A DNA stretch of 64,000 bases from positions 2,426,967 through 2,490,966 of the forward strand of contig OY760074.1 in NCBI GenBank assembly GCA_963663035.1. The letters are read 5' to 3'. The notes under the pieces are model-generated. The model made no database searches and was not told the DNA's origin. It saw only the letters and a list, made by a program, of their open reading frames with translations. This document shows positions 2,464 to 63,765 of the stretch, piece by piece (the stretch's first letter is position 1; each line of letters begins with the position of its first letter). This DNA comes from Acidobacteriota bacterium. GTDB lineage: Bacteria; Acidobacteriota; UBA6911; RPQK01; JADFOI01. A program made the translations under genes and the position numbers.

Positions 2464-2539
2464 AGCTAAAGTAGGAGACAGGAGGCAGGAGACAGGAGTC
2501 AGAAGCAAGATCTGAAACCTGGAACCTGAATCCTGGCAC

Positions 2540-4255
2540 TCACGAATCCTGGGTGACTCTCAGAACCTCCGCAATCGTCGTGACCCCCTGTTTGATCTTT
2601 TCAAACCCATCGTCTCGCAAAGTGGTCATGCCACCGCGAACGGCCGCCTTTCTCAGCTTAGTGGCCTCGGCATTGGAAATGGTTAAGCGGCGAATCTCCT
2701 CATCCATTAACATCAACTCAAAAATACCCACCCGTCCCTGATAACCCGTTTGGCCGCATTCTGTGCATCCCTTTCCCTCAAAAACTCTGGTGTCTGAATC
2801 CAGCGGGAACCCGATCTCCTCCAAGATGCCGCTCTCCATCGGCTGCTCTTCCTTACAGTGGGAGCAAATGACACGGACCAGACGTTGGGCCAGAACTCCC
2901 AGTATGGAAGAGGCCAACAAATAATCCTGTGCGCCCATATCCACCAGTCGAGCGATAGCGCTGGGGGCATCATTGGTATGCAGTGTGCTAAAAACCAGAT
3001 GACCGGTCAGGGCAGCTCTGATACCAATCTCAGCGGTCTCAAGGTCACGCATTTCTCCCACCATGATTACATCCGGATCCTGGCGCACGATGGATCGAAG
3101 TCCAGCTGCAAAAGTCAGCCCGATCTGAGGATTGACGTGGATTTGATTGATACCGTTAATCTGGTATTCCACAGGATCTTCAATCGTAATTATTTTCTTA
3201 TCAGGCTGATTGATCTTGGTCAGAGCACCGTAGAGGGTGGTTGTCTTACCGCTGCCGGTGGGACCTGTAACCAGGATGATCCCATGAGGACGCGAGATCA
3301 ACTGCTCGTACTGCTGATGCATCTGGGAGGAAAAGCCGAGTTTCTCCAAATCGTAGATTTGGGTGTTGCTCTTATCCAGGATGCGCATGACCACGCTTTC
3401 TCCATACATGGTGGGAAGTGTGGACACTCGAAGGTCGATATCCCTTCCCAGAACCTTTATCTTAATGCGGCCGTCCTGAGGGATTCTCCGCTCAGCAATA
3501 TTGAGTCTGGCCATAATCTTAACCCGAGAAATGATGGCCGCTTTGAGCTTCTTGGGCGGGGACTCTTCGTCGCAAAGAATGCCGTCAATGCGGAAGCGCA
3601 CCTTGAGATCACGCTCAAACGGCTCAATATGGATATCCGAAGCACGGGATTCGATGGCACGTGACATGATGAGATTAACCAACCGAATGACAGGGGCTTC
3701 CGATGCCAGATCCTTGAGATGTTCCACATCTTCCAGCTCCTCACTGACCAGGTCACTGTCGCCCGCGATGTCCTCCACGATCCTGTCCAGGGTCGAAGCC
3801 TGGCTCCCGTAAAATTTCTCGATCAGATCGAGAATGGCGTTTTCGGGGCCCAAAAACACTTGAAGGTTCTGGAAACCGGTGTAGAGACGAATGGTGTCCA
3901 GCGTGGAGTAATCCTGGGGGTTGGCCATGGCAAGAATCAGTTTGTTCTCGTCCTCCACCTTGATGGGAATGAATTTGCATTCGCGCATAAAGTTCGCCGA
4001 GAAAGTACCCTCCAGCACCGGAACCTGAGGAAGATCCTCGGCCGTCACGTAGGGGATACCTAAATAGGCACTCAGATGGCCCACCAGATCGGCCTCGGAA
4101 ATCGCTCCAATATCTATGAAAAGCTTACCGATTCGGTCCACTGACTGGTGCTGCAGACTGAGAGCAGTCGCCAACTCTTCCTGGGAGATGACTCCTTTTT
4201 CCAGCAGCTCCTGGCCGAAAGGCTTCTGAGTCTTTAGCTGTGACAGCTCAATCAT
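2540..4255 (-). CDS. gspE: Type II secretion ATPase GspE
   Basis: Walker A motif LVTGPTGSGKTTTLY, a T2SSE N-terminal domain, and a C-terminal tetracysteine CxxC...CxxC zinc motif. Confidence 0.9.
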   Translation of the reverse strand: MIELSQLKTQKPFGQELLEKGVISQEELATALSLQHQSVDRIGKLFIDIGAISEADLVGHLSAYLGIPYVTAEDLPQVPVLEGTFSANFMRECKFIPIKVEDENKLILAMANPQDYSTLDTIRLYTGFQNLQVFLGPENAILDLIEKFYGSQASTLDRIVEDIAGDSDLVSEELEDVEHLKDLASEAPVIRLVNLIMSRAIESRASDIHIEPFERDLKVRFRIDGILCDEESPPKKLKAAIISRVKIMARLNIAERRIPQDGRIKIKVLGRDIDLRVSTLPTMYGESVVMRILDKSNTQIYDLEKLGFSSQMHQQYEQLISRPHGIILVTGPTGSGKTTTLYGALTKINQPDKKIITIEDPVEYQINGINQIHVNPQIGLTFAAGLRSIVRQDPDVIMVGEMRDLETAEIGIRAALTGHLVFSTLHTNDAPSAIARLVDMGAQDYLLASSILGVLAQRLVRVICSHCKEEQPMESGILEEIGFPLDSDTRVFEGKGCTECGQTGYQGRVGIFELMLMDEEIRRLTISNAEATKLRKAAVRGGMTTLRDDGFEKIKQGVTTIAEVLRVTQDS

Positions 4256-6343: not shown

Positions 6344-7228
6344 CTATTCGGAATCGCGGAAGAATCGAAGCGGATTCAGTGGCTGACCGTTCAGGCGAAC
6401 TTCATAGTGAAGATGGGGGCCGGTGGCACGTCCTGTCGAACCCACATAGCCAATGATATCTCCCTTTTTGACCTTTTGACCCGCCTCGACCGAGTAGCGG
6501 TCTAAATGACCATAGCGAGTTGAGATGCCGAATTTGTGTTCCAGGGTCACCAGATTCCCGTAAGAGAATTTTTGCCCTGCGTTGATCACCACTCCGTCGG
6601 CCGTTGCGGAGACCTTATTGCCTCGAGGGGCAGAAATATCGATGCCGGGATGAAAATCGCGTTCTCCACTAAAAGGATCAATCCGGTAGCCAAACCCTCC
6701 GGAGGGATAGCCACGCACTGGTACGAGAGCCGGTGTGGCTGCCAGGAGAATGCTGCGCGTGTTGTACACATCCTGCAGCTGCCTGAACTGGGCCTCCAGG
6801 CTGATGCTCTTTCGCTCCAGGGAACTAAAATGGATACGGAGACCTTGGGTGTCAAGACTCAGCAGAGGGTTCTCGTAGGCAGAAGGACCGCCCACTCCAC
6901 CGAGACCTTCCTCATCTAAACCAGAAAGGATCTGCAGCTTCGTGGAAGTGACCTCCAAGGAGGCAAGCTTTTCACTCAGCTGCCTTGCAGCCAAGCGAAA
7001 GGTATCGTTCTCTTTGCTCAGATCATAGGAGGTGGCCTGTAACTGTTCATGATCCGTGGTTTTCTTCCACATGTGATAGTAGTGCAAGGTGGACAGGGAG
7101 AACGAAGAAAGGAGAATCCCCGATGCAATCCCCATCATGAGAAGAAACCTTTGAGAGAGTCTGAATCTGCGAGCAGGTAACTCAGCAGAACGAGAAACAA
7201 TGATCGTTAGATCCCCTCTCTTCCTCAT
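6344..7228 (-). CDS. M23 family peptidoglycan metalloendopeptidase
   Basis: HPGIDISAPRGNKV...GSTGRATGPHLHYEVRLNG matches the LytM/M23 HxxxD...HxH metal-binding motifs. An N-terminal transmembrane segment and a coiled-coil region are present. Confidence 0.8.
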   Translation of the reverse strand: MRKRGDLTIIVSRSAELPARRFRLSQRFLLMMGIASGILLSSFSLSTLHYYHMWKKTTDHEQLQATSYDLSKENDTFRLAARQLSEKLASLEVTSTKLQILSGLDEEGLGGVGGPSAYENPLLSLDTQGLRIHFSSLERKSISLEAQFRQLQDVYNTRSILLAATPALVPVRGYPSGGFGYRIDPFSGERDFHPGIDISAPRGNKVSATADGVVINAGQKFSYGNLVTLEHKFGISTRYGHLDRYSVEAGQKVKKGDIIGYVGSTGRATGPHLHYEVRLNGQPLNPLRFFRDSE

Positions 7229-7530
7229 TGCATCACCTCGCCGAGCAACAGCACAGTATGCACTCCATCCACTATCCCACTAACAAGCAACAAAGTACAT
7301 AGTAAAAAGTCGAGTTAGACTGTGTCAAGCCAATGGAGGAACCTCCCCCATAGAAACGACTTCCTGACAGAGTTTCTGCTGCTAAATGTTAGTTCGTCTG
7401 AAAAGACTAATTTCTCGACTTGCACGGGCAATAGTTTAACGCTAACCGAGCCGAGTGAACAGTGACGGCTGTCACCGAAACTACGAAAAGAACCCGTCTC
7501 GTCTCAATCCCCCCGAAACTGAAAGAAGTT

Positions 7531-7891
7531 TGGTGGAGGCGGTGGGAATCGAACCCACGTCCGAAAGCCTTCGGTTGCAGAATCTACATGCTTATCCGCT
7601 TTCTTTTTTGTCATCCAATCAGGCAAATAAAAGCGGCAATAACACCTGCTTGAATGTCCCTCAGATATTTTCTCAACTACCCCCTGAAGGAAACAGGATA
7701 GCTGAAAATCCCGCAAAAGCGACGTCTTACCCGTTCCGCGGGCTGAGCGAGTTTGACGGCTGCGCCTTAATTACGCAGCGAGTGGTAACTGTTCGTTGGC
7801 AGTTATTTTTGTTCACCACTGTTTTACGAGGTTGTGGCACCTCGGCATGCATCTACAGCCTCAACTACTCCCGTCGAAGCCAATCGCCCCC
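7531..7891 (-). ncRNA. ssrA: tmRNA (SsrA)
   Basis: The minus strand starts GGGGGCGAUUGGCUUCGACGGG and ends GGGUUCGAUUCCCACCGCCUCCACCA. This gives a tRNA-Ala-like 7-bp acceptor stem with a G3:U70 wobble, a T-arm and an encoded CCA. An internal reading frame GCC AAC GAA CAG TTA CCA CTC GCT GCG TAA encodes ANEQLPLAA followed by a stop. Confidence 0.8.
7771..7800 (-). other. tmRNA tag-peptide reading frame (ANEQLPLAA plus stop)
   Basis: Direct translation of the minus strand. The C-terminal LAA is typical of ssrA degradation tags. Confidence 0.65.
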
Positions 7892-7970: not shown

Positions 7971-8693
7971 TCACTTTACGGCAACACACCTGTAGCAAAG
8001 AGTAAATTCCTTCTTCTGATCCAGCCAGTCCAGATAATAGCAGGTGATGGGTCCCACGACGCAGCAGACAAACAGGGTCATCAATTCCAAGGGAGAAAGT
8101 AAGATTCGACTGATCCCGATTCGATCCCGAAAGAGTATTTTCGGGATATAGGTCAATCGCTGACCGATGTAATGGAAATATCCTCCCAAGGGCTGCACTG
8201 CGATCTTTTGAAACCCGATCGACTCCAGCAGTGATTGCAGCGCGTATTGGGTAAATCGAAAATAGTCATAGGGTTGCTGGTGTTCGTGCCATCCTTGAGG
8301 AGCAGTCAAATAAAGACAGCCTCCGGGTTTGAGAACACGGTAGATTTCCCTTAAGACTTCCTTGGGGTCCGGAACATGTTCCAGGACCTGGATTTGGAGC
8401 ACTACATCCACACTGTGAGCTGCTAAAGGGATGGCCGCCAGATCGGCACAGATGTGAAGCCTGGAATAATCCCAGGTAGGGTCTCCCACCTTGGAATCGA
8501 GCGCCAGGTATAGATGATCTAAAAAATGTCCGGGAAAACGGACTTCCCCAGCTCCCGCATCCAGCACCACGGCGTGCTCGAATAGTGGCCTGGCTGACTG
8601 GACAAAGGCCTCGATTGAATATTCCAGAGGATTGATCCGGCGTTTCAGCGGTTCCGGCAGCCAATTGTATGCCCGAAGATAGAGATCTGGCAC
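7971..8693 (-). CDS. Class I SAM-dependent methyltransferase (Methyltransf_11-like) with a C-terminal hydrophobic segment
   Basis: VLDAGAGEV (motif I) ... VLEHVPDP ... LKPGGCLYLTAPQ. GTG start. Confidence 0.7.
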   Translation of the reverse strand: MPDLYLRAYNWLPEPLKRRINPLEYSIEAFVQSARPLFEHAVVLDAGAGEVRFPGHFLDHLYLALDSKVGDPTWDYSRLHICADLAAIPLAAHSVDVVLQIQVLEHVPDPKEVLREIYRVLKPGGCLYLTAPQGWHEHQQPYDYFRFTQYALQSLLESIGFQKIAVQPLGGYFHYIGQRLTYIPKILFRDRIGISRILLSPLELMTLFVCCVVGPITCYYLDWLDQKKEFTLCYRCVAVK

Positions 8694-8696
8694 GGG

Positions 8697-8797
8697 GAGA
8701 GAATACAGAATACAGAATCCAGAATCCAGAATTCAGAAGGTAGGAGGTAGGAGGTAGGAGTCTTCTGTCAGTGGTCAGTGGTCAGCTGTCAGCTGCT
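8697..8797. repeat. Heptamer tandem-repeat cluster: AATACAG x2, AATCCAG x2, AATTCAG, AGGTAGG x3, TGGTCAG x2, CTGTCAG
   Basis: Read directly in the divergent intergenic region between the methyltransferase and coaE. Confidence 0.8.
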
Positions 8798-8820
8798 TCG
8801 CTTCATGCTACTATCTCTCC

Positions 8821-9435
8821 ATGCTGAAGGTTGGGCTGACGGGCGGCATTGGCTGCGGCAAAAGCCACATCCTCAGAGAATTCCATAAACTTGGGGTTTA
8901 CACCATTGACGCCGATGAAATTGCCCATCAAGTCATTCTTCCCGATCAACCCGCCTACGGGAAGATCCTCGACACATTTGGGCCTGAGATTCTGGCAACA
9001 GACAAAACGATCGATCGGAAGAAATTAGGCAAGATGGTCTTCTCTGATGAGAAGGCACGGCAAAAGTTGAACCAGATCGTGCATCCCCCGATCCTTCAGG
9101 AGGAGGCGCGGCTTGTCGCCGAGTGTGAAGAACAAGAAACTCCGAGATCTCCCATGATTATGGTTGACGCTGCCCTGATGGTTGAAACGGGATCCTATCG
9201 AAAATACGACTTTCTCATCGTGGTGTATTGCCAGCCTGGGGTTCAGCTCCAGCGCTTGCTGTCCCGCGACAGGTTCTCCCAGGAGGAGACACTGCAGCGA
9301 ATCGGCAGCCAAATGCCCCTTTTGGAAAAGAGCAAATATGCCGATTACATCATTGAAAACTCGGGAAGACTGTCTGAGGCCAACGAACAAGTGAAACAGA
9401 TCTTCACTGAACTGCTCAATCGCTGGGAAGGGTGA
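8821..9435 (+). CDS. coaE: Dephospho-CoA kinase
   Basis: N-terminal P-loop GLTGGIGCGKS, DADxxAH, and a VHPxI motif. Confidence 0.85.
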   Translation: MLKVGLTGGIGCGKSHILREFHKLGVYTIDADEIAHQVILPDQPAYGKILDTFGPEILATDKTIDRKKLGKMVFSDEKARQKLNQIVHPPILQEEARLVAECEEQETPRSPMIMVDAALMVETGSYRKYDFLIVVYCQPGVQLQRLLSRDRFSQEETLQRIGSQMPLLEKSKYADYIIENSGRLSEANEQVKQIFTELLNRWEG

Positions 9436-9516
9436 ACCCCTGACACCTGACAACTGACAGCTGACAGAAGACTCCTGTCTCCTGTCTCCTGCCTCCTGAC
9501 TCCTGACTCCTGCCTT
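9436..9516. repeat. Heptamer repeat arrays: CCTGACA-type x4 followed by TCCTGNC-type x6, forming an imperfect long hairpin between convergent genes
   Basis: acccctgacacctgacaactgacagctgacagaagactcctgtctcctgtctcctgcctcctgactcctgactcctgcc. The two arrays are mutually complementary, so the element could act as a bidirectional terminator. Confidence 0.75.
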
Positions 9517-10467
9517 CTATTCGGTATGAATCAACATCGCCGCCAGAAGGGGAATCATGATCTCGTGATGACCGGTTAGGGCGATTCCCTTCCCTCCCTC
9601 CAGAACGGGCCGTTCCACGACGTTCTTGGTGGGTCGGTAATGCTGAATGAAGTCAAGATTAGCGGTGGTGAAGTTCTTGAGTGGCTGCCCGGCGTTTCGG
9701 ACAAGTGACACGGCTTTCAGGAAAACCTCTGGAAGAATCACGGCAGATCCCAGATTCAAGTAGACTCCCCCCTCGTTGAGAAGCGAGACCTGCTGTGTGA
9801 AGATTCGAAAGTCGATTTGTGAGCTCTTACCCATGGCTTCTCCAGAAGCCTCTGGATGGTTGTGAATAATATCGGTACCGATAGCGATAAGAACCGCCAG
9901 GGGAATGTCCTTCTGATGTGCTTTGAGCAGCAGGGACAGTTCAGGGTACTTGGTATCGTGCTGCTTCATGAACTCGCCCACTGACTCCCCGATACCCTGC
10001 TCCGCCTGGGCTCCTTTGTTGATGGCTTGATTCAGGAGCTCTCCCGTCTCTCGAGCCATTCCAAAGGCTCCCGAGCCCAGTTGCTCCCCGACCTCCTCTG
10101 AGGTAGCACCGCTCAGCGCGATCTCAAAGTCATGAATCATGCCGCTTCCGTTGGTGGCAAGTGCTGTCACAAAGCCTCGCTCCATCAGGTCAAGCAGCAC
10201 GGGCGCCAGTCCAACTTTGACAACATGGCCACCAAACCCCCAGATAATGGCCCGCCCTTCTTCCCGTGCCTTTTGAATCTTTTCCACCAGAGTGCGCAGG
10301 TCATTCGCCCCAAGAAGTTTGGGCAGCGAGGCCGTGAAGGCCGAGAGCGAATCCTCGCTTAAGGGCTGAGCAAAGTGATCGACACTGACCTTGCTGGGAC
10401 GGGATTCAAGCGGATAATCCCTGATCTTTTCGGCCTTGAACTCTTTATACTTGGACATGCCTGGCAA
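9517..10467 (-). CDS. Deoxyhypusine synthase (DS) family-like protein, function unknown
   Basis: [46 protein letters not shown] resembles the DHS-like NAD-binding core (compare VDVLVTTAGGVEEDLIKCL in eukaryotic DHS). The call is weak. Confidence 0.4.
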
Positions 10468-13255
10468 GAAGCTCCCCTAAAACTCTTCCTGTCTGCGATT
10501 TTCTTGATGTCACTATTTTCTCGGGAGGACCAACCGCCACAAGTCGGCCACCGGCTGCTCCGCCCTCCGGACCCAGATCAATGATCCAATCAGCGCATTT
10601 GATGACTTCAAGATTGTGTTCGATCACGATCACGGTGTTACCACGATCGACTAGCTGATTGAGTATGTCAAGAAGCTTTTTTACGTCCTCAAAATGGAGT
10701 CCAGTCGTCGGCTCGTCGAGGATATAGAGAGTCTTGCCGGTTGAGCGCTTGCTCAGCTCACGCGAGAGCTTCACTCGCTGAGCTTCCCCACCGGAGAGCG
10801 TGGTGGCCGATTGTCCAAGTTTAACGTAGCCCAGTCCTACGTCCGAAAGAGTTCGCAGCCTTGCCTGGAGGCGAGGGAGGTTCTCAAAAATCGGATAAGC
10901 TTCCTCAATGCTCATCTCGAGAATGTCCGCTATCGAAAATCCTTTGTACTTGATGGAAAGGGTCTCTCGGTTGTAACGGGCACCCTGGCAAGCTTCACAG
11001 GCCACGTAGACATCGGGGAGAAAATTCATCTCAATCTTGCGCAGCCCATCTCCACGGCAAACCTCACAGCGCCCTCCTTTGACATTGAAACTGAAGCGCC
11101 CGGGTTTGTATCCTCGGACTCGAGAATCCGGCAGCAGGGTAAAAAGCTCTCGGATCGGTGTAAAAAGACCTGTATAGGTGGCAGGATTGGAGCGCGGGGT
11201 CCGACCGATAGGGGATTGATCAATCTCAATGACCTTGTCGATCATCTCCACTCCAGAGATTGCTCGATGTAGCCCCGGCTCCAGCAGAGAACGATACAGC
11301 TGGCGCGAGAGGGCACGATAAAGCACGTCATCCACTAACGACGATTTTCCAGACCCGGAAACTCCTGTCACGGCAATCAACATGCCGAGGGGAAAGGTCA
11401 CATCAATCTCGTGAAGATTGTTGTGACGGACACCGAAAAGCTGAATGGCCTCCCCATTTCCCTTGCGACGCTGGGCTGGGACAGAGATCTCCCGACTTCC
11501 ATTCAAATATTGAGCCGTGAGAGACTCCTGCTGCTGTAAGACTCGCGACAAACTGCCCCGGGCCACAACGTGACCTCCGGCATGACCGCCTCCAGGCCCT
11601 AAATCCACCACATAATCGGCGCTTCGAATGGTTTCCTCATCATGTTCAACGACGATGATCGTATTTCCCAGATCACGGAGCTCCTTGAGTGCGCTCAGGA
11701 GTCTTCGAGTGTCCCGCGAGTGGAGTCCGATGGAAGGCTCATCCAGAACGTACAGGACACCTCTCAGGCGGGATCCAATTTGCGTGGCCAGACGAATACG
11801 CTGAGCCTCACCACTGGAGAGAGAGACTGCTTTTCGTTCCAGAGTCAGATAGGAGAGCCCCAAGTTCAACATAAAACGCAAACGATTGCGGATTTCTTCC
11901 AGGATCTGCCCGGCAATGGCTTCTTCCCGAGCGGAAAGCGCAATCCGCTCCACCGCTTTCAGGCAATGATCCAAGGTGAGTTGACAGTAGTCGGAGATTC
12001 CAAGACTGCCAACTTTCACAGCCCGACTTTCGGGGCGCAGACGAGTCCCACTGCAGACATTGCAGGAACCTTCCTTCACAAAAGTCAATAACTGCTGGCG
12101 TCGCTTATCACTACCCGCAGCCTGAACTCTCCGCCTCAGCCAGTGATCCAATCCTTTAAAGCGGGACCTGTAGAGGTGGCCCGCATAACGGAATTGAATG
12201 GGCTTCTCAATTCCCTCTTGAAGGGCCTGAAGGACTTCTTCGGGGTATTTGCAATAGGGAGTGGTGAGTTTAACCTCAAATTTCTCCAGCAAAATTCTGA
12301 GCGACTCCCGGAAAAAGTGATAAAACTCCTTGTCCGACAAAGCGAGCTTCAAGTCCTTCAAAGGTTTTTTCGGGTTTTCGATCAGCCTTTCCAGGTTAAC
12401 GTGAAGCTGGGAACCAAGCCCGTCGCAGCGGGGGCAGGCGCCAAATCGGCTGTTAAAAGAGAAGCTTCGAGGTTCCAGTGTGGGAACGTTAATCCCACAT
12501 TCGATGCAGGCCATGGTTTCTGAAAAGAGCATCTCCGGGCCATTGATCACGGAAACGGTGACCAGTCCCTGGCCCATGCGGACGGCCTGGCGCACGGAGT
12601 TCTCCATTCTATGGCGCACTTCTTCTTCAATGAGGAGCCGGTCCACCACAATGTCGATACTGTGATTTTTCCTTCTATCCAGGGCTGGAGGGTCCTCCAG
12701 AGTGATCAGGGAATCGTCAACACGCGCCCGCACAAATCCTTCCCGGTGATACTTATCGAATAGTTTCTTGAACTCCCCCTTACGCTCCCGGACGACGGGA
12801 GCCATGATGAGCAATCGACTGCTCTTGGGTAATGCGAAGATTTGCTCCACGATCTGATCGACCGATTGCCTCGTGATAGGCCTGCCACAATTGGGACAGT
12901 GTGGGGTTCCGACGCTGGAGAACAGCAGACGCAGATAGTCGTATATTTCCGTGATGGTGCCGACGGTGGAGCGAGCACTCTTGATGGTTGTCTTCTGATC
13001 AATGGAAATGGCCGGAGAAAGTCCTTCGATGGAATCGACATCCGGCTTTTCCATCTGGTCCAAAAACTGGCGTGCGTAGGTAGAGAGCGACTCGATGTAT
13101 CGTCTCTGACCTTCTGCGTAGAGGGTGTCAAAAGCCAGGCTTGATTTTCCGGAACCACTCAAGCCGGTGATGACCGTCAACTGGTTGCGTGGAATCTCTA
13201 GATCGATGTTCTTGAGATTATGCGCGCGGGCACCCCGAATAGAGATATTCTTCAT
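10445..13255 (-). CDS. uvrA: Excinuclease ABC subunit A
   Basis: [58 protein letters not shown]. Two ABC ATPase modules plus zinc fingers, 936 aa. Confidence 0.95.
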
Positions 13256-13308
13256 GGGTCAAACCTTCTATTGTCGGGGAGTTGAGAATCAAGGTCAAGA
13301 CGAGGGAT

Positions 13309-13447
13309 GGGCCCGCAGGCTAAAGCCTGCGGCTCTGATCGGAGCCAGCGAGGATCAGTCAGAGCCGTGGGCTTTAGCCCACGGGCCAGAGGGGCCGGAG
13401 GAAGCTCTGCCCGGGCCCGCAGGCTAAAGCCTGCGGCTCTGATCGGA
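13309..13447. repeat. REP-like element: two direct copies of a 35-bp hairpin repeat (13309-13343 and 13413-13447) flanking a second hairpin
   Basis: The repeat is gggcccgcaggctaaagcctgcggctctgatcgga (stem gcaggc/gcctgc). The second hairpin is gccgtgggctttagcccacgggc. The element lies downstream of the protease gene and upstream of uvrA. Confidence 0.6.
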
Positions 13448-13463
13448 GGTGGCACCCGAGACT

Positions 13464-19493: not shown

Positions 19494-20690
19494 ATGGGCC
19501 AGGAAAAGGAACTGATCGACAAGATTCAACAGGTACTCAGGGAGTTCGACATTCCTGCCTGGCTCTTTTACGGCTTTCGGGATCTTGATCCGATTGCCAC
19601 CCGTATTCTCCAGTTCGGGCCTCATCAGCTGGCAACTCGGCGCTGGTTTTATCTCATTCCCGCAGAAAGTGAACCGAAGAGACTGGTCCACCGACTCGAA
19701 TCTTCCCATTTGGATCACCTGCCTGGCAGTAAGGAAGTCTATTTGAAATGGGAGCAACTACAAGAGCAGGTCAGGGCACTCTTAGAGGGCGTTTCGACGG
19801 TGGCCATGCAATTCTCAGAGAACAATGCCATACCTCATGTCTCGAGGGTGGATGCTGGAACAGTCGACCTGGTCCGCTCCTGCGGCCCAAGGGTCGTTTC
19901 CTCAGGAGATCTGATCCAGCGTTTTGAGGCCGTCTGGAGCCCCAGACAGGTCCAGCAACACCGTGCCACAGCTCTTGCCCTGACTGCCACTGTCAAGGCC
20001 GCTTTTGAGCAGGCTGCCGCTGAAATCTCTTCTCAGGGTGAGAGCAACGAGCTGAGCATCCAGCGCTTCATTTTGGATCGCTTTGAGCGGGATGGGTTGC
20101 TCACTGACCACTCTCCCATTGTGGCAGTGAATGAAAACAGCGCCAACCCACACTATCAGCCCAGCGCAGCAGAATACTCCACAATTCACAGAGATGATTT
20201 CCTGCTGATTGACTTATGGGCCAAGTCCAAAGAGGAAGACAGCGTGTATGCCGATATTACCTGGACAGCCTTTATGGGTGAGCGGATACCCGACAAGATC
20301 AACAAAATTTTCCAGGTCGTTCGCCAGGCTCGTGACCGGGGAGTGGACTTCTTGCGCGCCGGGTTTGAGGAAAGGAACCCTCCCCGGGGTTGGGAGGTGG
20401 ACGACGTCGTTCGCGAGAGCATCCGGAAGGCTGGCTACGAAAAATTCTTTGTCCATCGGACCGGTCACAATCTGGGCCAAGAGATACACGGCAATGGGGT
20501 CAACTTTGACAACCTCGAGACGCATGACACACGACAAGTCATCCCCGGTATCGGATGTACCATCGAGCCTGGGATCTATCTGGAAGGAGAATTCGGCGTC
20601 CGCAGTGAGATCAACGTGTTCTTCACCCAGGCAGGACCAGAAGTAACGACACCGCCTCAGGAAGAAATCTGGAGAACCACTGACAACTGA
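19494..20690 (+). CDS. M24 family metallopeptidase (Xaa-Pro aminopeptidase or creatinase type)
   Basis: The C-terminal pita-bread fold motif HRTGHNLGQEIHG...GCTIEPGIY...E. The ATG at 19494 overlaps the plsC stop. Confidence 0.8.
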   Translation: MGQEKELIDKIQQVLREFDIPAWLFYGFRDLDPIATRILQFGPHQLATRRWFYLIPAESEPKRLVHRLESSHLDHLPGSKEVYLKWEQLQEQVRALLEGVSTVAMQFSENNAIPHVSRVDAGTVDLVRSCGPRVVSSGDLIQRFEAVWSPRQVQQHRATALALTATVKAAFEQAAAEISSQGESNELSIQRFILDRFERDGLLTDHSPIVAVNENSANPHYQPSAAEYSTIHRDDFLLIDLWAKSKEEDSVYADITWTAFMGERIPDKINKIFQVVRQARDRGVDFLRAGFEERNPPRGWEVDDVVRESIRKAGYEKFFVHRTGHNLGQEIHGNGVNFDNLETHDTRQVIPGIGCTIEPGIYLEGEFGVRSEINVFFTQAGPEVTTPPQEEIWRTTDN

Positions 20691-20745
20691 CACCTGACAA
20701 CTGACAGGTGAAACGCTGACCGCTGACCGCTGACCGCTTCAACAG
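20680..20745. repeat. Heptamer repeat array: ACTGACA-type x4 then CGCTGAC x3. It overlaps the last codons and stop of the M24 peptidase gene.
   Basis: cactgacaactgacacctgacaactgacaggtgaaacgctgaccgctgaccgctgaccgc. Confidence 0.75.
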
Positions 20746-20750
20746 GAGAT

Positions 20751-20779
20751 TTGCACCGAGATGGGAGAATGTGTATAAT
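20751..20779 (+). promoter_or_regulatory. Near-consensus sigma70 promoter: TTGCAC, 17-bp spacer, extended -10 TGTGTATAAT
   Basis: ttgcac cgagatgggagaatgtg tataat, followed by GGGAG and the ATG at 20807. Confidence 0.55.
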
Positions 20780-20806: not shown

Positions 20807-21052
20807 ATGAGCCCAAAACGTAAACTGCTTACCGTTTCTCTTCCCCCCGATATGGCCAGGAAGTTCGACAAGCTGGCTCGGGGCGAGGGCAAAAACAAAA
20901 GTCAGCTCTTCAGGGAGATGTTCCACACCTATGAACGACAGCGCCTCGAACGTGAATTCAACGACCTCCAGCGTTATGGTGCCAGCGAGGCCCGAAAAAT
21001 GGGTGTCTTGACTGAAGCCGATGTGGAAGCATTAGTATTTCAGGACCGCTGA
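20807..21052 (+). CDS. Ribbon-helix-helix (CopG-like) antitoxin
   Basis: An 81-aa protein whose N-terminus is RHH-like (KLLTVSLPPDMARKFDKLA). It lies immediately upstream of the PIN gene, separated from it by 3 bp. Confidence 0.65.
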   Translation: MSPKRKLLTVSLPPDMARKFDKLARGEGKNKSQLFREMFHTYERQRLEREFNDLQRYGASEARKMGVLTEADVEALVFQDR

Positions 21053-21055
21053 CGG

Positions 21056-21454
21056 GTGCAGGTTGTTTTCGATACGAACATTTTTATCTCTGCGTTCGTC
21101 ATTCCAGGCGGTAATGCGGATAAGGCATATCTTGAGGCCATCCGGGGAACCTTTGAGCTTCTTACCTCTGTAGCCATTCTGACTGAAACTGCGAACACAC
21201 TTCGCACCAAGTTTGCGTGGTCAGACTACAAGATCCAACAACTCCTCCGCGCCATCAGTGGAACCGCCACAGTCGTCAAGACCCAGCCTCACATTCACGT
21301 CCTCAAAGATGAGCCGGACAATCGAATCCTGGAATGTGCACTCCTTGCCGAAGCTGACCTGATCGTGACGGGAGATAAACATCTGCTTTCTTTGCGACAG
21401 TACCGGGATATGTCGATCATCACACTCGCTGATTTTATGGAACTCATTCAGTAA
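21056..21454 (+). CDS. PIN-domain toxin (VapC-like)
   Basis: MQVVFDTNIFISAF...ILECALLAEADLIVTGDKHL carries the PIN-domain acidic residues. GTG start. Confidence 0.7.
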   Translation: MQVVFDTNIFISAFVIPGGNADKAYLEAIRGTFELLTSVAILTETANTLRTKFAWSDYKIQQLLRAISGTATVVKTQPHIHVLKDEPDNRILECALLAEADLIVTGDKHLLSLRQYRDMSIITLADFMELIQ

Positions 21455-21459
21455 CCACA

Positions 21460-21525
21460 GATCACAGCTGGCAGCCCGGCAACGGTTGTCAGTTGTCAGG
21501 TGTCAGCGTTTCAGGGTTTCAGTGG
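21460..21525. repeat. Heptamer repeat array (GTTGTCA x2, GGTGTCA, GTTTCAG x2) between convergent genes
   Basis: ggttgtcagttgtcaggtgtcagcgtttcagggtttcagtgg. Confidence 0.7.
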
Positions 21526-22794
21526 TTAGTCGTTCAAAACTACGGTTTCTGAAGGAGACACCATTCGGTAGCGAACTCCCCGCCACTCGATTGTGCGACT
21601 CAACAGGGAACGGATGAATCCCAACAGGGAAAGGAGAGAGGCCAGGGGTCCCCAGAAAGTATAAGCCCAGCGATACTTCCGCAGAACCGAAGCGTGCTCA
21701 GGAAACAACAGGGAGACAGCCCGTACTCGAAGCCAACCCTTTACGCAACCGAGGGAGTAGACTGAAGCAAGCAGCACTGCAAGTGGGAAAAGAAGACGAC
21801 TGGAGGCAAGATTGGTGTTCCAGAGCGCGGCCGACAGGAATGCCATTCCTCCCCAAAGAGTGATGCTGTTGAGGGCCTGCGAAGCAAAAGCCATCTTCCA
21901 CAAGTTGGGATGGTAAACGCGAGTAATGGAAAGTTGTCGGCCGCTCCACTCCAGTAACTCTTCGAAGCTGCAGTCCTCATGGGAAAAACTCAGGCAGCGG
22001 GGTTGGAAGGAAATGGTTCGCGAATGATCATGCATGGCCCGGCTGATAGCGTAGTCGTCACTCAAGGCATTCCTCCAGTAGTCGATGACTCGGCAATCCT
22101 GAAACACTTGACGACGCACGGCCATGGCTCCCCCCCAAGCAAAGGCGCTGTCTCCTTCTTTCAAGAGCGATGCCGTCCCGGCATTCCAAACTGAGCGCAA
22201 AGCAGAAGCAAAGTTCCCTCGCTGGGGGAGATACCAACGAAATCCCGTACTCACACCCACCTGTGGATCTTTGAGTGGGCCGATCAGATAACGCAGCCAG
22301 TGACTGGCCGGTCGAATATCGGAGTCTCCAAGCGCCAACACCTGGTCTTTGTCGCGAAGCTGACCAAGGGCATGCAGCAGGTTATGCACTTTCTGTCCGC
22401 GCTGCTCGGTCTTGCCCGCAAAGAGAATTTCAGAACTCACCCCGGGATATCGCTCTTTCACCTTCTCCAGAATGGGCACACAGGGATCCGCGGAGTCCCC
22501 GGTCACCAGCAGAATCTGCAAGTCAGGGTAGTCCAACTCGAAGTAGGCCTCAAGATTCTGTTCAAGTCCAGCGTCGACCCCTTTGCAGGGAAGAATCAGA
22601 GAGGCCGCTGGAGCAAACTCATGGGGTGGCTTACCGCGAAACTTTTGAAACAGCCGAAGATAGTCGACTCCTGCCTTGAGAGAATAGAGGGCCTCCAGAA
22701 GAGAGAGGATTGCGAAAGCGACGAGAACGGCAGGAATAAGGGTCAAGACTGACATTGGCGACTGGCCCCGGCCATTGCCAGCAACCGGTTCCAC
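21526..22794 (-). CDS. Membrane glycosyltransferase, GT2/GT21-like (ceramide-glucosyltransferase or HpnI-like fold)
   Basis: N-terminal TM segment, a DSD motif (LGDSDIRP), GGAMAVRRQVF, and several C-terminal TM segments. Confidence 0.55.
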   Translation of the reverse strand: MEPVAGNGRGQSPMSVLTLIPAVLVAFAILSLLEALYSLKAGVDYLRLFQKFRGKPPHEFAPAASLILPCKGVDAGLEQNLEAYFELDYPDLQILLVTGDSADPCVPILEKVKERYPGVSSEILFAGKTEQRGQKVHNLLHALGQLRDKDQVLALGDSDIRPASHWLRYLIGPLKDPQVGVSTGFRWYLPQRGNFASALRSVWNAGTASLLKEGDSAFAWGGAMAVRRQVFQDCRVIDYWRNALSDDYAISRAMHDHSRTISFQPRCLSFSHEDCSFEELLEWSGRQLSITRVYHPNLWKMAFASQALNSITLWGGMAFLSAALWNTNLASSRLLFPLAVLLASVYSLGCVKGWLRVRAVSLLFPEHASVLRKYRWAYTFWGPLASLLSLLGFIRSLLSRTIEWRGVRYRMVSPSETVVLND

Positions 22795-31518: not shown

Positions 31519-31594
31519 ACTTCGTAGAGTCACCCTATAATATAAAATTAGAGTGGCATAGAGAGTGGCATAACTCGTTGCTTGTCATGAAAGG
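31519..31594 (+). promoter_or_regulatory. Conserved promoter/leader element, copy A: ACTTCGTAGAGTCACCCTATAATATAAAA...TCGTTGCTTGTCATGAAAGG
   Basis: Highly similar to 36344-36407. It contains a perfect TATAAT and lies immediately 5' of the plus-strand cassette. Confidence 0.4.
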
Positions 31595-34353: not shown

Positions 34354-34370
34354 GAGCGTGTTGCTCACTG

Positions 34371-34445
34371 GAATGTGGGAGCCGCCTCAGTGCGGCGAAT
34401 GGGCCTCTTCGCGGCCTGAGGCCGCTCCCACATTCTCCCAACCGC
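34371..34445. terminator. Long nested hairpin between convergent genes: a 20-bp stem with one mismatch enclosing an inner 8-bp stem
   Basis: gaatgtgggagccgcctcag ... ctgaggccgctcccacattc. Confidence 0.5.
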
Positions 34446-34462
34446 AAGGACAGGAAGGCGGG

Positions 34463-36316: not shown

Positions 36317-36343
36317 CCCTGGTAACTGCCGCTTCTACACAGA

Positions 36344-36407
36344 ACTTCGTGGAGTCAACCTATAATATAAAAGAAGAATGGCGTTAATCGTTGCTTGTAC
36401 TGAAAAG
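36344..36407 (+). promoter_or_regulatory. Conserved promoter/leader element, copy B: ACTTCGTGGAGTCAACCTATAATATAAAA...TCGTTGCTTGTACTGAAAAG
   Basis: Aligns with copy A at 31519. Immediately 5' of the methyltransferase operon. Confidence 0.4.
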
Positions 36408-54819: not shown

Positions 54820-55016
54820 TAGCCGGGATTATGCATAGGTTTTCGTGACGAAGTGCCGCAGGCGCCGCGATGACAAGGCATGCGAAGGGGTACCCGCTTG
54901 CGGGTCGGGACCCGCAGGCGTACTCATGCAGTACGCCGAGGAGCCCAAGGAAGCATAACGCAGTCAGCGCGGATGATTGCGGCACTGCAGTAGAAAATTT
55001 ATTCATAATCCCGGCT
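54820..55016. repeat. Roughly 200-bp imperfect palindromic element: 14-bp perfect terminal inverted repeats (tagccgggattatg / cataatcccggcta) plus nested inner hairpins
   Basis: Inner hairpins are gtgccgca/tgcggcac, cccgcttgcggg and ggcgtact-catgc-agtacgcc. The element sits in the divergent region between the radical SAM gene and a GT4 gene. Confidence 0.55.
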
Positions 55017-55111
55017 AAACCCTGCTTCTATGTTACAAAATAAGAGGGGCCGACCGTGCAGCCCTCAACAGGAAACGTTACCGTATTGATGGGACGAGGT
55101 ACTGTGGAAGA

Positions 55112-56215
55112 ATGAGAATTCTAGTCATTTGTGATGTTCTGTCTCCGCAGACGGTGGGAGGGGCGGGAAGGTTCGCTCGAGAAGTCACCACGGCTTTCGG
55201 AGAACGGGGTAACGCGGTGGAATTTCTCACTCGACAAGTTTCTGCGAATCGTTCGAGAAACGATGCCAACGATATCAAAACAACCTATTACCCATTTGTG
55301 GGAAAGGCCTTTCCCACTCGTTTTCGAAAGATCTTCAACCAGACCATAAGAGACTTTAAACCTGACCTTGTGCATGTTCATCAACCCCTGCCAGCATTCC
55401 TATTGATTCCATCTTCTTTCTCCCGACCGATCGTCTACACCTTTCACTCCTCCTGGGCGGAGGAGTTTAAGATCAAGTCTTCTCGCTGGCCGCGAGTCTT
55501 CAGAAAGATAGTGAGTCCTTTGCTGGCGGAAGTGGAGAAACGCGCACTCCACCGTGCAACTGCAATAACGGTGCTGAGCGAGTTCTCACAGCGCAAACTG
55601 AAGCGACTTTATAACCGGGAAGGGGTCATAATCCCGGGCGGAGTCAACTCCGAGCGATTTCAACCGATCGAGAAAGTGCAACCCAACCAGACTCTTCGCC
55701 TGGTTACCCTTCGCAACCTGGTCCCACGGATGGGATTACCTCAACTGATCCGCGCCATGAAACTCTTGCCTTCCCACATCGAACTAACGATCGGGGGACA
55801 GGGTCCACTGCGGAATGAGCTAATGGGGCTCATCGGGTCCCTGGGTCTGAGCAAACGAGTGCAATTGGCTGGACACGTGCCGGATGATGATCTTTCTCAT
55901 TTCTATTCGTCGGCCAACTGGTTTGTTCTGCCCACTGTGGCACTGGAAGGATTCGGTCTGGTTATCTTGGAAAGCCTTTCCTGTGGCACTCCGGTGTTGG
56001 GAACAAGGATCGGGGCGATTCCGGAGCTGTTGGAAAAATTCGATCCACAGTGGATCATCAAAGAACCCACTCCGGAGGCCATCGCTGCCACAATACTATC
56101 TGTCAGCGAAAACTCCCCTCCCTCGCCCACCCAGTTGCATGATCGGGTCAGCGCGGAATTCGACTGGAGAAACATTGCCGCGCGCTACCTCGACCTGTTC
56201 GCGAGTCTCATCTAG
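55112..56215 (+). CDS. GT4 glycosyltransferase
   Basis: MRILVICDVLSPQTVGGAGRFAREV...LEGFGLVILESLSCGTPVLGTRIGAIPELL. Confidence 0.8.
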   Translation: MRILVICDVLSPQTVGGAGRFAREVTTAFGERGNAVEFLTRQVSANRSRNDANDIKTTYYPFVGKAFPTRFRKIFNQTIRDFKPDLVHVHQPLPAFLLIPSSFSRPIVYTFHSSWAEEFKIKSSRWPRVFRKIVSPLLAEVEKRALHRATAITVLSEFSQRKLKRLYNREGVIIPGGVNSERFQPIEKVQPNQTLRLVTLRNLVPRMGLPQLIRAMKLLPSHIELTIGGQGPLRNELMGLIGSLGLSKRVQLAGHVPDDDLSHFYSSANWFVLPTVALEGFGLVILESLSCGTPVLGTRIGAIPELLEKFDPQWIIKEPTPEAIAATILSVSENSPPSPTQLHDRVSAEFDWRNIAARYLDLFASLI

Positions 56216-56300
56216 GGAAATGTGGGGACAAAGGGGAAATGTGGGGACAAAGGGGAAATGTGGGGACAAAGGGGAAATGGGGACAAAGGGGAAATGTGGG
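56216..56300. repeat. 19-bp direct tandem repeat GGAAATGTGGGGACAAAGG: three perfect copies, one 17-bp copy and one partial copy
   Basis: Read directly. There are no interspersed spacers, so this is not a CRISPR array. Confidence 0.85.
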
Positions 56301-56364
56301 GACAGACTACCCGTTCACCTTATTTCGGAAATGAGGTGAACGGGTAGTCTGTCCCCACATTTCC
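56290..56364. terminator. Perfect 30-bp stem hairpin with a 15-nt loop; bidirectional terminator candidate between convergent genes
   Basis: ggaaatgtggggacagactacccgttcacc / ggtgaacgggtagtctgtccccacatttcc. Confidence 0.6.
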
Positions 56365-56382: not shown

Positions 56383-56613
56383 CTACCTTCTGTCCGCGTC
56401 CTGAGGCTCGTAGAATTCAGGCTGGTGATTGTAAAGATAGGTCCCAAACCACATGAGAAAAAAGGCAATCACGACAATCACCAATAAGACAATCACCTTC
56501 GGCCAGACCCCTCCGCGTCGTGGAGAACCTAGCCTAAAAAGGCCGGAGATCTTTCCCCTGTCTCTCCTTCTCCTGCCTCTACCTCTCCTGTCTCCCTTTC
56601 TCCTCTCTGTCAT
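56383..56613 (-). CDS. Doubtful small ORF (76 aa): an Arg-rich N-terminus plus one TM helix
   Basis: ATGA overlap with the stop of asnB-2. The N-terminus RRGRGRRRRD is encoded by the CT-rich heptamer repeat family, so the ORF may be spurious. Confidence 0.25.
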   Translation of the reverse strand: MTERRKGDRRGRGRRRRDRGKISGLFRLGSPRRGGVWPKVIVLLVIVVIAFFLMWFGTYLYNHQPEFYEPQDADRR

Positions 56614-62593: not shown

Positions 62594-62872
62594 ATGGCAG
62601 GGAAGCGGTTTAGGGCAGAACAGATCATCATGAAGCTGCGTGAGGCAGAGGTGGGTCTGGCCCAAGGACAGAGGGTGGGACAGGTGTCGAAGCAGATGGG
62701 GGTGAGCGAGCAGACCTACTACCGGTGGCGCAAAGAGTACGGAGGGCTCCGGTTGGACCAGGCCAAGAGGTTGAAGGTGTTGGAGAAGGAGAATACCCGG
62801 TTGAAGAAGCTGGTGGCGGATCTGTCTTTGGACAAGCAGATCCTGAAGGAAGTGTCCTCGGGAAACTTCTAG
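62594..62872 (+). CDS. IS3 family transposase OrfA (helix-turn-helix)
   Basis: [51 protein letters not shown]. Confidence 0.8.
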
Positions 62873-63765
62873 GCCCGGCGAACAGGAGACGAGCGGTGAT
62901 GTGGGTACGAGAGCGATTAGGAGCAGAGCGAGTCTCCGAACGTCGGGCCTGCCAAGTGCTGGGACAGGTTCGATCGACCCAGCGAAGGGAAAGGCAAATT
63001 CCCGATGATGAGGCCCGATTGGTGGCCCGGATGGTGGAGTTGGCTACGCAATACGGGCGTTATGGCTACCGGCGGGTCACGGCGATACTTCATGGGGAAG
63101 GGTGGAAGGTGAATCCTAAGCGGGTGGAGAGGCTGTGGAGACAAGAAGGGCTGAAAGTCCCGTCCAGACAGCCGAAACGAAGGAGGCTGTGGCTTAATGA
63201 CGGTTCCTGTGTTCGGTTACGAGCGGCTCGCAAGAACCACGTCTGGAGCTATGATTTCGTGCATGAACGGACCCATGATGGGCGAGCCTTTCGGCTATTG
63301 ACGATCCTGGATGAGTACACCAGAGAGTGCCTCGCCATTGATGTGAAACGGCAGATGAATCACCAAGACGTGTTGGACCGGCTGGCGGAGTTATTCGTTG
63401 ATCGGGGAGTGCCTGAGTTTATCCGGTCCGATAACGGATCGGAGTTTACGGCACAGGCGGTCCGGGACTGGCTGCAGGCTGTTGGGGTAAGGACCTTGTA
63501 CATCGAGCCGGGCAGCCCCTGGGAGAATGGGTACATTGAGAGTTTCAACGGGAAACTACGGGATGAGCTGCTGAACATGGAGATCTTCGACACGCTGGGG
63601 GAAGCCAAGGTGTTGGTAGAACGCTGGCGGAGGGATTACAATCAGATCCGGCCTCACAGCGCCTTGGCCTATCGGCCGCCGGCGCCAGAGGCCAAACTAC
63701 CTAGGTCGCAGGCACTGGATCCAATCCCTTGGAGTGGACTTCAAATGGTCCCGGGTCTAGCATAG
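62860..63765 (+). CDS. IS3 family transposase OrfB (DDE integrase core), expressed by a programmed -1 frameshift at GGGAAAC (62860-62866)
   Basis: ...[16 protein letters not shown]...DNGSEFTA...[20 protein letters not shown] matches the DD(35)E catalytic core. The ORF track gives the orfB frame as 62725..63765. Confidence 0.75.

Follow-up and report, generated by a model that had tools for sequence, protein, structure and literature searches.

What are the runs of 7-nt repeats that fill spacers between genes in an Acidobacteriota genome, and what produces and maintains them? The question is raised by positions 9436–9516 of a 64-kb stretch of contig OY760074.1 (the whole stretch analyzed, hereafter the window), where coaE and a deoxyhypusine-synthase-like (DS-like) gene converge on a spacer in which 77 of 81 nt belong to tandem heptamers. 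A sequence-only reading of the window had placed this locus in a family of heptamer arrays at six gene boundaries and had regarded the family as lying outside any described feature class. Our analysis indicates that the arrays are probably slippage-driven heptanucleotide simple-sequence repeats (SSRs), of the same kind as the short tandemly repeated repetitive (STRR) sequences, long simple-sequence repeats (LSSRs), TAACTGA arrays (PMC4679880), and GGGAATC arrays (PMC4692102). Intergenic heptamer arrays have thus been published before, and the class itself is not new.

We ran Tandem Repeats Finder (TRF) on the whole window together with a mismatch-tolerant period scan (periods 4–12), and used 200 composition-preserving block shuffles as the null for period-7 excess. 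TRF returned period-7 arrays at 2473–2502, 2512–2535, 8700–8738, 8738–8760, 8765–8795, 9440–9467, 9470–9515, 20679–20706, 20714–20738, and 21485–21506, as well as an 8-mer variant at 21499–21527, and the period scan gave five runs at period 7, one at period 8, and none at the other periods. At a slightly lower threshold, the window contained seven period-7 runs compared to a shuffle mean of 0.075 (maximum 2). As in LSSRs, head-to-tail units in the 5–11-nt range extend beyond the length expected by chance, and period 7 is the only one enriched. Five of the six loci in the sequence-only reading were heptameric by both methods, and the units it quoted match the sequence; the sixth, 56520–56610, has a period of 15 and is taken up below. 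Past the window edges, two further arrays were detected in the left 10 kb and none in the right 8 kb. The same arrays are present in independent metagenome assemblies of near-identical strains and are thus not assembly artefacts. All arrays in the window fell in gaps of a greedy open-reading-frame (ORF) map that covers ~93% of it, which bears out the earlier proposal that they are a genuine family found only at the edges of genes. The five loci in 64 kb are dispersed, intergenic, and heptameric, as STRRs are, and the only repeat inside a gene, at 56553–56608, is the one of period 15; coding DNA here, as described for LSSRs, excludes units with a length not divisible by 3.

When written on the CTG-bearing strand with CTG first, every array reads (CTGNMNN)n. 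Of 43 units, 42 have C at position 1, 42 have T at position 2, and 40 have G at position 3; position 5 is either C (33 units) or A (10 units), and positions 4, 6, and 7 vary. A single network of one-base steps joins 18 of the 19 unit types, and the mean number of base differences is 1.06 for adjacent units, 2.15 for non-adjacent pairs within an array, and 2.55 for pairs from different arrays. This in-register drift is visible within single arrays. The spacer at 9436–9516 had been read as adjacent complementary arrays, of NCTGACA and TCCTGNC types, forming a long imperfect hairpin. The two types at 9440–9516 are not complements but same-strand, in-register variants, and the locus is one array (D; 9440–9516, plus strand) of 11 units: CTGACAC, CTGACAA, CTGACAG, CTGACAG, AAGACTC, CTGTCTC, CTGTCTC, CTGCCTC, CTGACTC, CTGACTC, and CTGCCTT. 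A hairpin does form at its internal junction. Array C (8700–8760, minus strand) is likewise a single in-register gradient, which reads AGAATAC (twice), AGAATCC (twice), AGAATTC, AGAAGGT, and AGGAGGT (twice) on the plus strand, and its ortholog in relatives L211 and L212 grades from AGAATAC through AGAATCC and AGAAGCC to AGGAGGC. Because both are in-register gradients, the apparent unit AGGTAGG is phase-shifted AGGAGGT. All of the arrays belong to one family in one register.

The sequence-only reading had proposed comparing heptamer number between strains, and this number does vary. The window is 99.9% identical to strains L001 and L002 over 19.4 kb, with only two indels, one of which is exactly one extra CTCCTGT unit in array D of L001. 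Relatives L211 and L212, which encode identical CoaE proteins (90% identity to that of the window), carry 4 versus 7 CTGACAN units after coaE, and only ~1.5 CTCCTGA units are left in their coaE 3′ gap. L213 and L214, whose CoaE proteins are also identical to each other (80% identity to the window), differ by one GACAACA unit at another array; their coaE gap holds units AAATCCC/AAATTCC, CTGGAAC, and CTGTCAG, unlike those of the window. Whole-unit polymorphism between close relatives of this type is the signature of slippage in LSSRs. The arrays at 20679–20738 and 21485–21527 were invariant across three near-identical strains.

Turnover is also seen between species. In L004 (UvrA 71% identical), the convergent gap between coaE and the DS-like gene holds an ordinary hairpin resembling repetitive extragenic palindromic (REP) elements and no heptamer array, and L215 (CoaE 71% identical) has no arrays within 20 kb. 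The spacer upstream of polA is 45 nt long and array-free in the window, and 279 nt long with at least six arrays in L004, and the T2SSE–T2SSF spacer is 4 nt long in L213 and contains 76 nt of arrays in the window. GTCAG-type arrays occur in the gap upstream of coaE in all four species (63–100% identity), with different units and orientations. Arrays are occasionally copied between loci as well, because L213 holds two copies, 100% identical and separated by 7.7 kb, of a 45-nt composite (GACCGCA twice, GACGACG, GACAACA three times), together with a module of ~100 nt that recurs at 77% identity at separate loci.

These comparisons are anchored in one phylum. In a comparison with 185,579 species genomes, UvrA matched Acidobacteriota metagenome-assembled genomes (MAGs) best, at 70–71% identity, all CoaE homologs with names are from Acidobacteriota, and the 3.4-Mb contig of L004 shows full synteny over polA, an extracytoplasmic-function (ECF) sigma factor gene, a PDZ protease gene, uvrA, the DS-like gene, and coaE. 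A cyanobacterial source, suggested by the STRR-like appearance of the arrays, was excluded by the Acidobacteriota MAG relatives of UvrA and CoaE and by the type II secretion system (T2SS) and ECF-sigma neighborhood.

We infer that units are gained and lost through slipped-strand mispairing during replication or repair, that point mutations would then be spread by local duplication, and that arrays would survive only outside reading frames, where a 7-nt indel, not being a multiple of 3, does not shift a frame. Effects on neighboring genes, including changes in promoter or ribosome-binding spacing, hairpins in 3′ untranslated regions (UTRs), and the M24 peptidase stop codon described below, would be locus-specific and incidental and would not amount to a single function common to all arrays. 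Several observations weigh against slippage and drift as a sufficient explanation. CTG is invariant in nine arrays next to a hypervariable position 4, and TGAC occurs in all six L004 arrays compared to an expectation of 5.5%; pure slippage with drift accounts for neither pattern. Seeding from an abundant genomic word was ruled out, as CTGACA is not over-represented outside the window arrays (30 occurrences, hexamer mean 30.5). Arrays also occupy the gaps upstream and downstream of coaE in several species (80–100% CoaE identity), and this persistence, together with the three loci that fold significantly better than shuffles, could reflect selection as the cause.

Flanking genes were assigned from Pfam matches of ORFs and from genes called on matching contigs. 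A stop codon lies within 5 nt of the array at four of the five true heptamer loci, so the earlier statement that most arrays follow stop codons directly applies to these four and not to the group at 8700–8797, which sits between two divergent start codons. At 2464–2539, where arrays make up 67 of 76 nt, the spacer runs from the T2SSE stop to the T2SSF start, two co-directional genes within the type II secretion operon. Array A (2473–2507) reads CTGACTC, CTGTCTC, CTGCCTC, and CTGTCTC on the minus strand (four AGGAGNC units and AGAAGCA on the plus strand) and ends 10 nt upstream of the T2SSF ATG (2463). Array B (2512–2539, plus strand) reads CTGAAAC, CTGGAAC, CTGAATC, and CTGGCAC and adjoins the T2SSE stop (2540–2542, minus strand), and the two arrays together constitute a periodic imperfect hairpin. 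Array C shares the 8694–8820 spacer, between the divergent starts of a methyltransferase gene (7971–8693, minus strand) and coaE (8821–9435, plus strand), with array C2 (8765–8797, minus strand), which reads CTGTCAG, TGGTCAG, TGGTCAG, CTGTCAG, and CTG on the plus strand and CTGACAG, CTGACCA, CTGACCA, and CTGACAG on the minus strand, and ends 24 nt upstream of the coaE ATG. GTCAG-type arrays are found at the C2 position in L211, L213, and L004 as well. Array D occupies the convergent gap from the coaE stop (9435) to the DS-like gene stop (9517).

The repeats at 20679–20738 overlap the stop codon of an M24 peptidase gene and lie upstream of an RHH–PIN toxin–antitoxin operon. Array E1 (20679–20706, plus strand) reads ACTGACA, ACTGACA, CCTGACA, and ACTGACA, and the peptidase (19494–20690) ends ...W-R-T-T-D-N-stop, with T-D-N and the TGA stop supplied by the array; the sequence-only reading had noted this for the last codons. 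Array E2 (20714–20738, plus strand) consists of 3.6 copies of CGCTGAC and is followed by the sigma-70-like promoter (20750–20779) of the RHH–PIN operon. Beyond this operon, arrays F (21470–21527, minus strand) read CTGAAAC(C) twice and then CTGACAC, CTGACAA, and CTGACAA on the minus strand, include a degenerate inverted arm at 21470–21484, and occupy the spacer 21455–21525 between the convergent stops of PIN (21454) and a GT2 glycosyltransferase gene (21526). The toxin–antitoxin cassette is therefore flanked by E1 and F in inverted orientation. Toxin–antitoxin cassettes lie between heptamer arrays at two places, the RHH–PIN cassette at 20807–21454 of the window and a MazE–ParE cassette at 7113–7660 of L213/L214, and a different, HicB-like module occupies the post-M24 site in L004 (214–857). 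These positions suggest that array-rich spacers are insertion hot spots.

Heptamer arrays are also found well beyond this lineage. The UvrA loci of other phyla (78 loci, 1.36 Mb) held 67 arrays, of which 26 had period 7, more than any other period; heptamer arrays occurred in an Anaerolineae MAG, a Dehalococcoidia MAG, and a Geminocystis cyanobacterium, and the CAGTTAT/ACTGATA arrays of a WOR-3 genome belong to the TAACTGA family. CTG/CAG was present in only 3 of 21 heptamer arrays at these UvrA loci. The exact motif (CTGACAN)3 was found in at least 120 JGI metagenome stretches (GC 37–71% among the matches listed) and at least 120 IMG/VR viral stretches. In IMG/VR, two control heptamers of the same composition gave 30 and 38 stretches, making (CTGACAN)3 at least 3–4 times commoner, and (CTGNCTC)3 gave 105. 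Among 365 other heptamer arrays that co-occurred in the metagenome and viral loci, 45% contained CTG/CAG compared to 21% of random heptamers, in a sample that is biased. Arrays in the metagenome sample lay between ORFs or within ~100 nt of ORF ends, and their orientation relative to co-directional genes (11 sense, 5 antisense) did not depart significantly from parity.

The alternative that survives best, itself unlikely, is that the arrays are selected transcription terminators or 3′-end-stabilizing hairpins, in which inverted or partly complementary heptamer runs would fold in RNA at operon ends. We scored folds of six regions as z against shuffles. The minus strand of 9430–9522, with its hairpin at the array D junction, folds at −31.7 kcal/mol (z = −3.2; plus strand, z = −2.0), 21450–21530 gave z = −5.4 on the plus strand and −3.9 on the minus strand, and the minus (mRNA) strand of 2464–2539 folds at −26.1 kcal/mol (z = −4.0). 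This explanation also gains from the presence of arrays in both convergent gaps, from the extra unit of L001, which lengthens the stem of the coaE 3′ gap hairpin and makes it stronger (z = −4.3), and from the REP-like hairpin in the orthologous convergent gap of L004, which suggests equivalent roles. Folds of 8694–8820, 20676–20760, and 56530–56612, however, were no better than shuffles, and z was −3 or lower at three of the six loci; imperfect hairpins as described in the sequence-only reading are thus real at some loci but not general. In addition, no array matched a stem-plus-T-tract or other terminator-like pattern, arrays also lie upstream of starts and within the T2SS operon, and array orientation relative to the flanking genes is mixed. 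The coaE 3′ gap hairpin was lost in L211 (z ~0 and −0.6) and weak in L212, and therefore is not conserved. Intrinsic (Rho-independent) terminators were rejected on the grounds of hairpins at only three of six loci, no T-tract, and a hairpin that is not conserved. Rho rut sites were rejected as well: the CTG strand is C-rich and G-poor, but the stop-adjacent arrays of the metagenome sample are more often antisense (9 versus 3).

It is improbable that the arrays are multivalent platforms for an RNA- or DNA-binding protein that reads CTG(AC) every 7 nt, although MacGregor proposed a regulatory network for TAACTGA (PMC4679880). The confinement of position 5 to C or A and the invariant CTG over 43 units while the other positions drift, the TGAC bias in L004, the excess of CTG-bearing heptamers among co-occurring arrays, and the abundance of (CTGACAN)3 in IMG/VR would all be expected of such platforms. 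The arrays, however, keep no consistent strand or distance to starts or stops and are lost or replaced at orthologous sites, their 7-bp spacing is out of step with the helical repeat of DNA, no protein emerged as a candidate, and frequent copying between loci can by itself keep a shared core. This explanation includes the suggestion in the sequence-only reading that the repeats act as Shine-Dalgarno or CsrA-type sites. Such sites present GGA or GGAGG on the mRNA within about 15 nt of a start codon, and those of CsrA overlap the Shine-Dalgarno sequence, often in hairpin loops. The string of GGA/GGAGG motifs in GGAGACAGGAGGCAGGAG was read correctly as sequence, but the proposed roles fail on strand and position: the GGAG strand at 2473–2502 is antisense to both flanking genes, whose mRNA reads CUCCUG, that at 9472–9515 is the 3′ UTR of the DS-like gene, and that at 8738–8760 precedes the coaE ATG by more than 60 nt. 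These placements do not support a Shine-Dalgarno role, and CsrA sites were rejected with it.

Least probable is a spread of the arrays as blocks, either within small composite mobile elements or as recombination and insertion hot spots: the identical 45-nt composite of L213, its ~100-nt module (an xGACA array, GAAGAyTTAA, a CCTGGAA array, and GCGCGCGrAGCGCGC), the same layout in the 2464–2539 spacer of the window with its 76-nt gain over the 4-nt L213 spacer, and the toxin–antitoxin cassettes between arrays (including the inverted CTGACAN arrays at 20679 and 21485, and the different module at the same post-M24 site of L004) point in this direction, but no terminal inverted repeats, target-site duplications, or transposase are linked to the arrays, strains differ by single-unit steps rather than block insertions, and the composites differ in unit content between loci. 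Compared to REP elements and MITEs (miniature transposable elements with inverted repeats), the window arrays are without terminal inverted repeats, the L213 composites are copied between loci, and REP-like hairpins exist separately in the window.

Slippage-driven heptanucleotide SSRs, by comparison, have close published counterparts. The STRRs of heterocystous cyanobacteria comprise three Calothrix heptamers (Mazel et al., 1990, as cited in PMC4692102), and they resemble the window arrays in being dispersed intergenic tandem heptamers with a small set of related units in each genome. Like the window units, STRR1 and STRR3 (CCCCAGT and CAACAGT) carry CAG/CTG, and STRR2 (TTGGTCA) is the reverse complement of the L004 unit TGACCAA. 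The difference lies in the host, Cyanobacteria rather than Acidobacteriota, and in the units, which in the window are CTGACAN, CTGNCTC, CTGRAAC, and CTGNATT; no tandem STRR1–3 units (CCCCAGT, TTGGTCA, CAACAGT) occur in the window. For LSSRs, the summary of Mrázek et al. (2007) in PMC4679880 ranks heptanucleotides first in abundance among long SSRs, describes genes as free of units not divisible by 3, and gives polymerase slippage as the proposed cause, and the window arrays match this account in unit size, beyond-chance length, and exclusion from genes. The summaries in PMC4679880 and PMC4692102 do not name Acidobacteriota among the repeat-rich genomes and describe no CTG-anchored register.

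TAACTGA arrays are intergenic in Beggiatoaceae, Cyanobacteria, and Bacteroidetes; their spacers also contain other heptamers, Cyanothece strains differ by indels in 7-nt steps, and array positions are strain-specific (MacGregor, 2015; PMC4679880). They share with the window arrays the intergenic location, 2–6 or more copies, the mixing of heptamers, the 7-nt-step indels, and a unit that contains CTGA, but in Beggiatoaceae BOGUAY they lie mostly just upstream of starts in forward orientation, whereas positions and orientations in the window are mixed, and no tandem TAACTGA is present in the window. The GGGAATC/GGGGAYT arrays of Xanthomonas and Nostoc follow the upstream ORF at a mean distance of 28 nt and differ in length and sequence between related species (Rehm et al., 2015; PMC4692102). 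These too are intergenic, species-variable heptamer SSRs close behind an ORF end; their units, however, are G-rich and form G-quadruplexes, whereas the window units have GG pairs at most and a C-rich CTG strand. No published heptamer unit of the STRR, TAACTGA, or GGGAATC types occurs in tandem in the window. Repeats of 7 bp in variable number also precede Haemophilus influenzae hmw1A and hmw2A, in the promoter/5′-UTR region (PMC8262952; PMC12721329), and Vibrio cholerae ctxAB, where the heptamer is TTTTGAT (bioRxiv 10.1101/2021.05.14.444153), but each of these is a single locus whose effect on expression has been demonstrated, whereas the window arrays occupy many loci in every intergenic context. 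In contingency loci, the unit number of an SSR in an ORF, core promoter, or 5′ UTR switches expression; the arrays here vary in unit number, and one overlaps the 5′ end of a T2SSJ-like pseudopilin gene. This array, seen at 10996–11022 of L206/L207, ~170 nt left of the window start, has four TGTCAGS units, which either belong to a leader peptide that starts at an ATG at 10964 or immediately precede a GTG start within the array. In the longer form, gain or loss of one unit would cause a frameshift, which makes this a possible phase-variable site. Within the literature collection that was searched, we found no account of such arrays in Acidobacteriota and only unrelated primer-type matches for the exact strings CTGACAACTGACA and similar, and heptamers are absent from a survey of short tandem repeats (PMC12699852).

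Of the long simple-sequence repeats in bacteria, heptamer arrays are the commonest kind. STRRs were described over three decades ago, and to our knowledge neither an origin nor a function has been established for heptamer arrays. What is new here is Acidobacteriota as a host phylum and a set of new units, for a kind of repeat already known, together with a graded series of relatives at one site (99.9%, 90%, 80%, and 70%) that records unit gain and loss, in-register drift, and block copying. The invariance of CTG beside the hypervariable position 4 could guide the search for a mechanism. A more speculative and rather unlikely extension is that CTG(AC)-phased heptamers form a cross-phylum class made or kept by a specific process, in which case the CTG anchor would be no accident of descent and the class would span this Acidobacteriota lineage, TAACTGA, STRR1 and STRR3, the WOR-3 genome, and many phage contigs. 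Candidate processes would be the binding of a protein to CTG at 7-nt intervals or the realignment of primers at the triplets that primase recognizes; CTG is the template site of Escherichia coli DnaG, and the T7-type site is GTC, on the opposite strand. If real, such a class would explain why seven is the favored repeat length in bacteria.

The arrays also have practical consequences. They mislead gene callers, which extend starts through the stop-free strands of arrays: several CoaE homologs (P0004–P0034) were called at 225–270 residues instead of 204, and T2SSF was called at 421 or 378 residues in two assemblies (L001 versus L002), compared to 406 residues with the start placed here. In addition, the arrays provide ready-made strain markers for metagenomic populations.

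The sixth locus proposed earlier, in which an array was said to form the Arg-rich start of a doubtful small ORF, does not belong to the heptamer family. The repeat at 56553–56608 (minus strand) is purine-rich with a period of 15 (TRF, 75% match), and the period-7 scan detected nothing there. Its minus strand encodes MTERRKGDRRGRGRRRRDRGK, which is indeed the Arg-rich N-terminus of a 76-residue ORF (56383–56613, minus strand) that has a hydrophobic segment and overlaps the asnB stop in an ATGA junction; the ORF is translationally coupled to asnB. Gene callers report the ORF in several assemblies, its homologs at 97, 82, and 74% identity are all exactly 76 residues long, and in L210 it occupies the same position after asnB with no indels. 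Codon-position differences of 11/7/11 give no sign of strong purifying selection and are a weakness of the coding assignment. As length, frame, transmembrane segment, and gene coupling are conserved, we nevertheless consider 56553–56608 to be coding sequence and treat the product as a putative conserved membrane protein rather than as a member of the array family.

Other repeats lie near by. At 56215–56361, directly after a GT4 stop, 4.8 copies of the 19-mer GGGAAATGTGGGGACAAAG are followed by a perfect inverted repeat of ~31 bp with loop TTATTTCGGAAATGA; this is a variable-number tandem repeat, since strain L085 is without 55 bp (three units). The head GGAA(A)TGTGGG is common to the hairpin at 56285 and a long hairpin at 34354–34462 (GGAATGTGGGAGCCGCCTCAG...CTGAGGCCGCTCCCACATTC), and the core GGAGCSGCCTCAG of the latter also occurs in the coaE/DS-like gap hairpin of L004 (13790–13860); the three hairpins look like a REP-like family. 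In the gap upstream of uvrA (13256–13463), another REP-like element (GGGCCCGCAGGCTAAAGCCTGCGGCTCTGATCGGAG plus GCCGTGGGCTTTAGCCCACGGGC) is present twice and recurs at other sites in relatives (L210, 3232–3330; L211, 2950–3030). In L211, it is inserted in the middle of the heptamer spacer upstream of coaE. An inverted repeat at 54820–55020 (TAGCCGGGATTATG ... CATAATCCCGGCTA) encloses ~170 nt of hairpin-rich DNA upstream of a GT4 gene and looks MITE-like. Left of the window, near-identical strains differ by two insertions (L206, 12800; L207, 18062), one of 59 nt that is rich in hairpins (GCGGGTACCCC...GGGGTCGACCCGTG) and one of 88 nt, neither of them heptamer-based.

Over the window, Rfam at the gathering threshold returned only a one-piece tmRNA gene (7531–7891, minus strand; 188 bits), and in strain L001 the spacer that separates this gene from an M23 peptidase gene carries an insertion of 8 bp, AGCACTCT, at 7292. 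A common promoter-like box, CTTCGTrGAGTCAmCCTATAATATAAAA, lies at 31520–31560 and 36340–36385, upstream of two genes of an exopolysaccharide/glycosyltransferase cluster. The right end of the window holds an IS3-family insertion sequence (62594–63765) with an HTH_Tnp_1 OrfA of 92 residues followed, in another frame, by an rve OrfB, both called as genes in L209.

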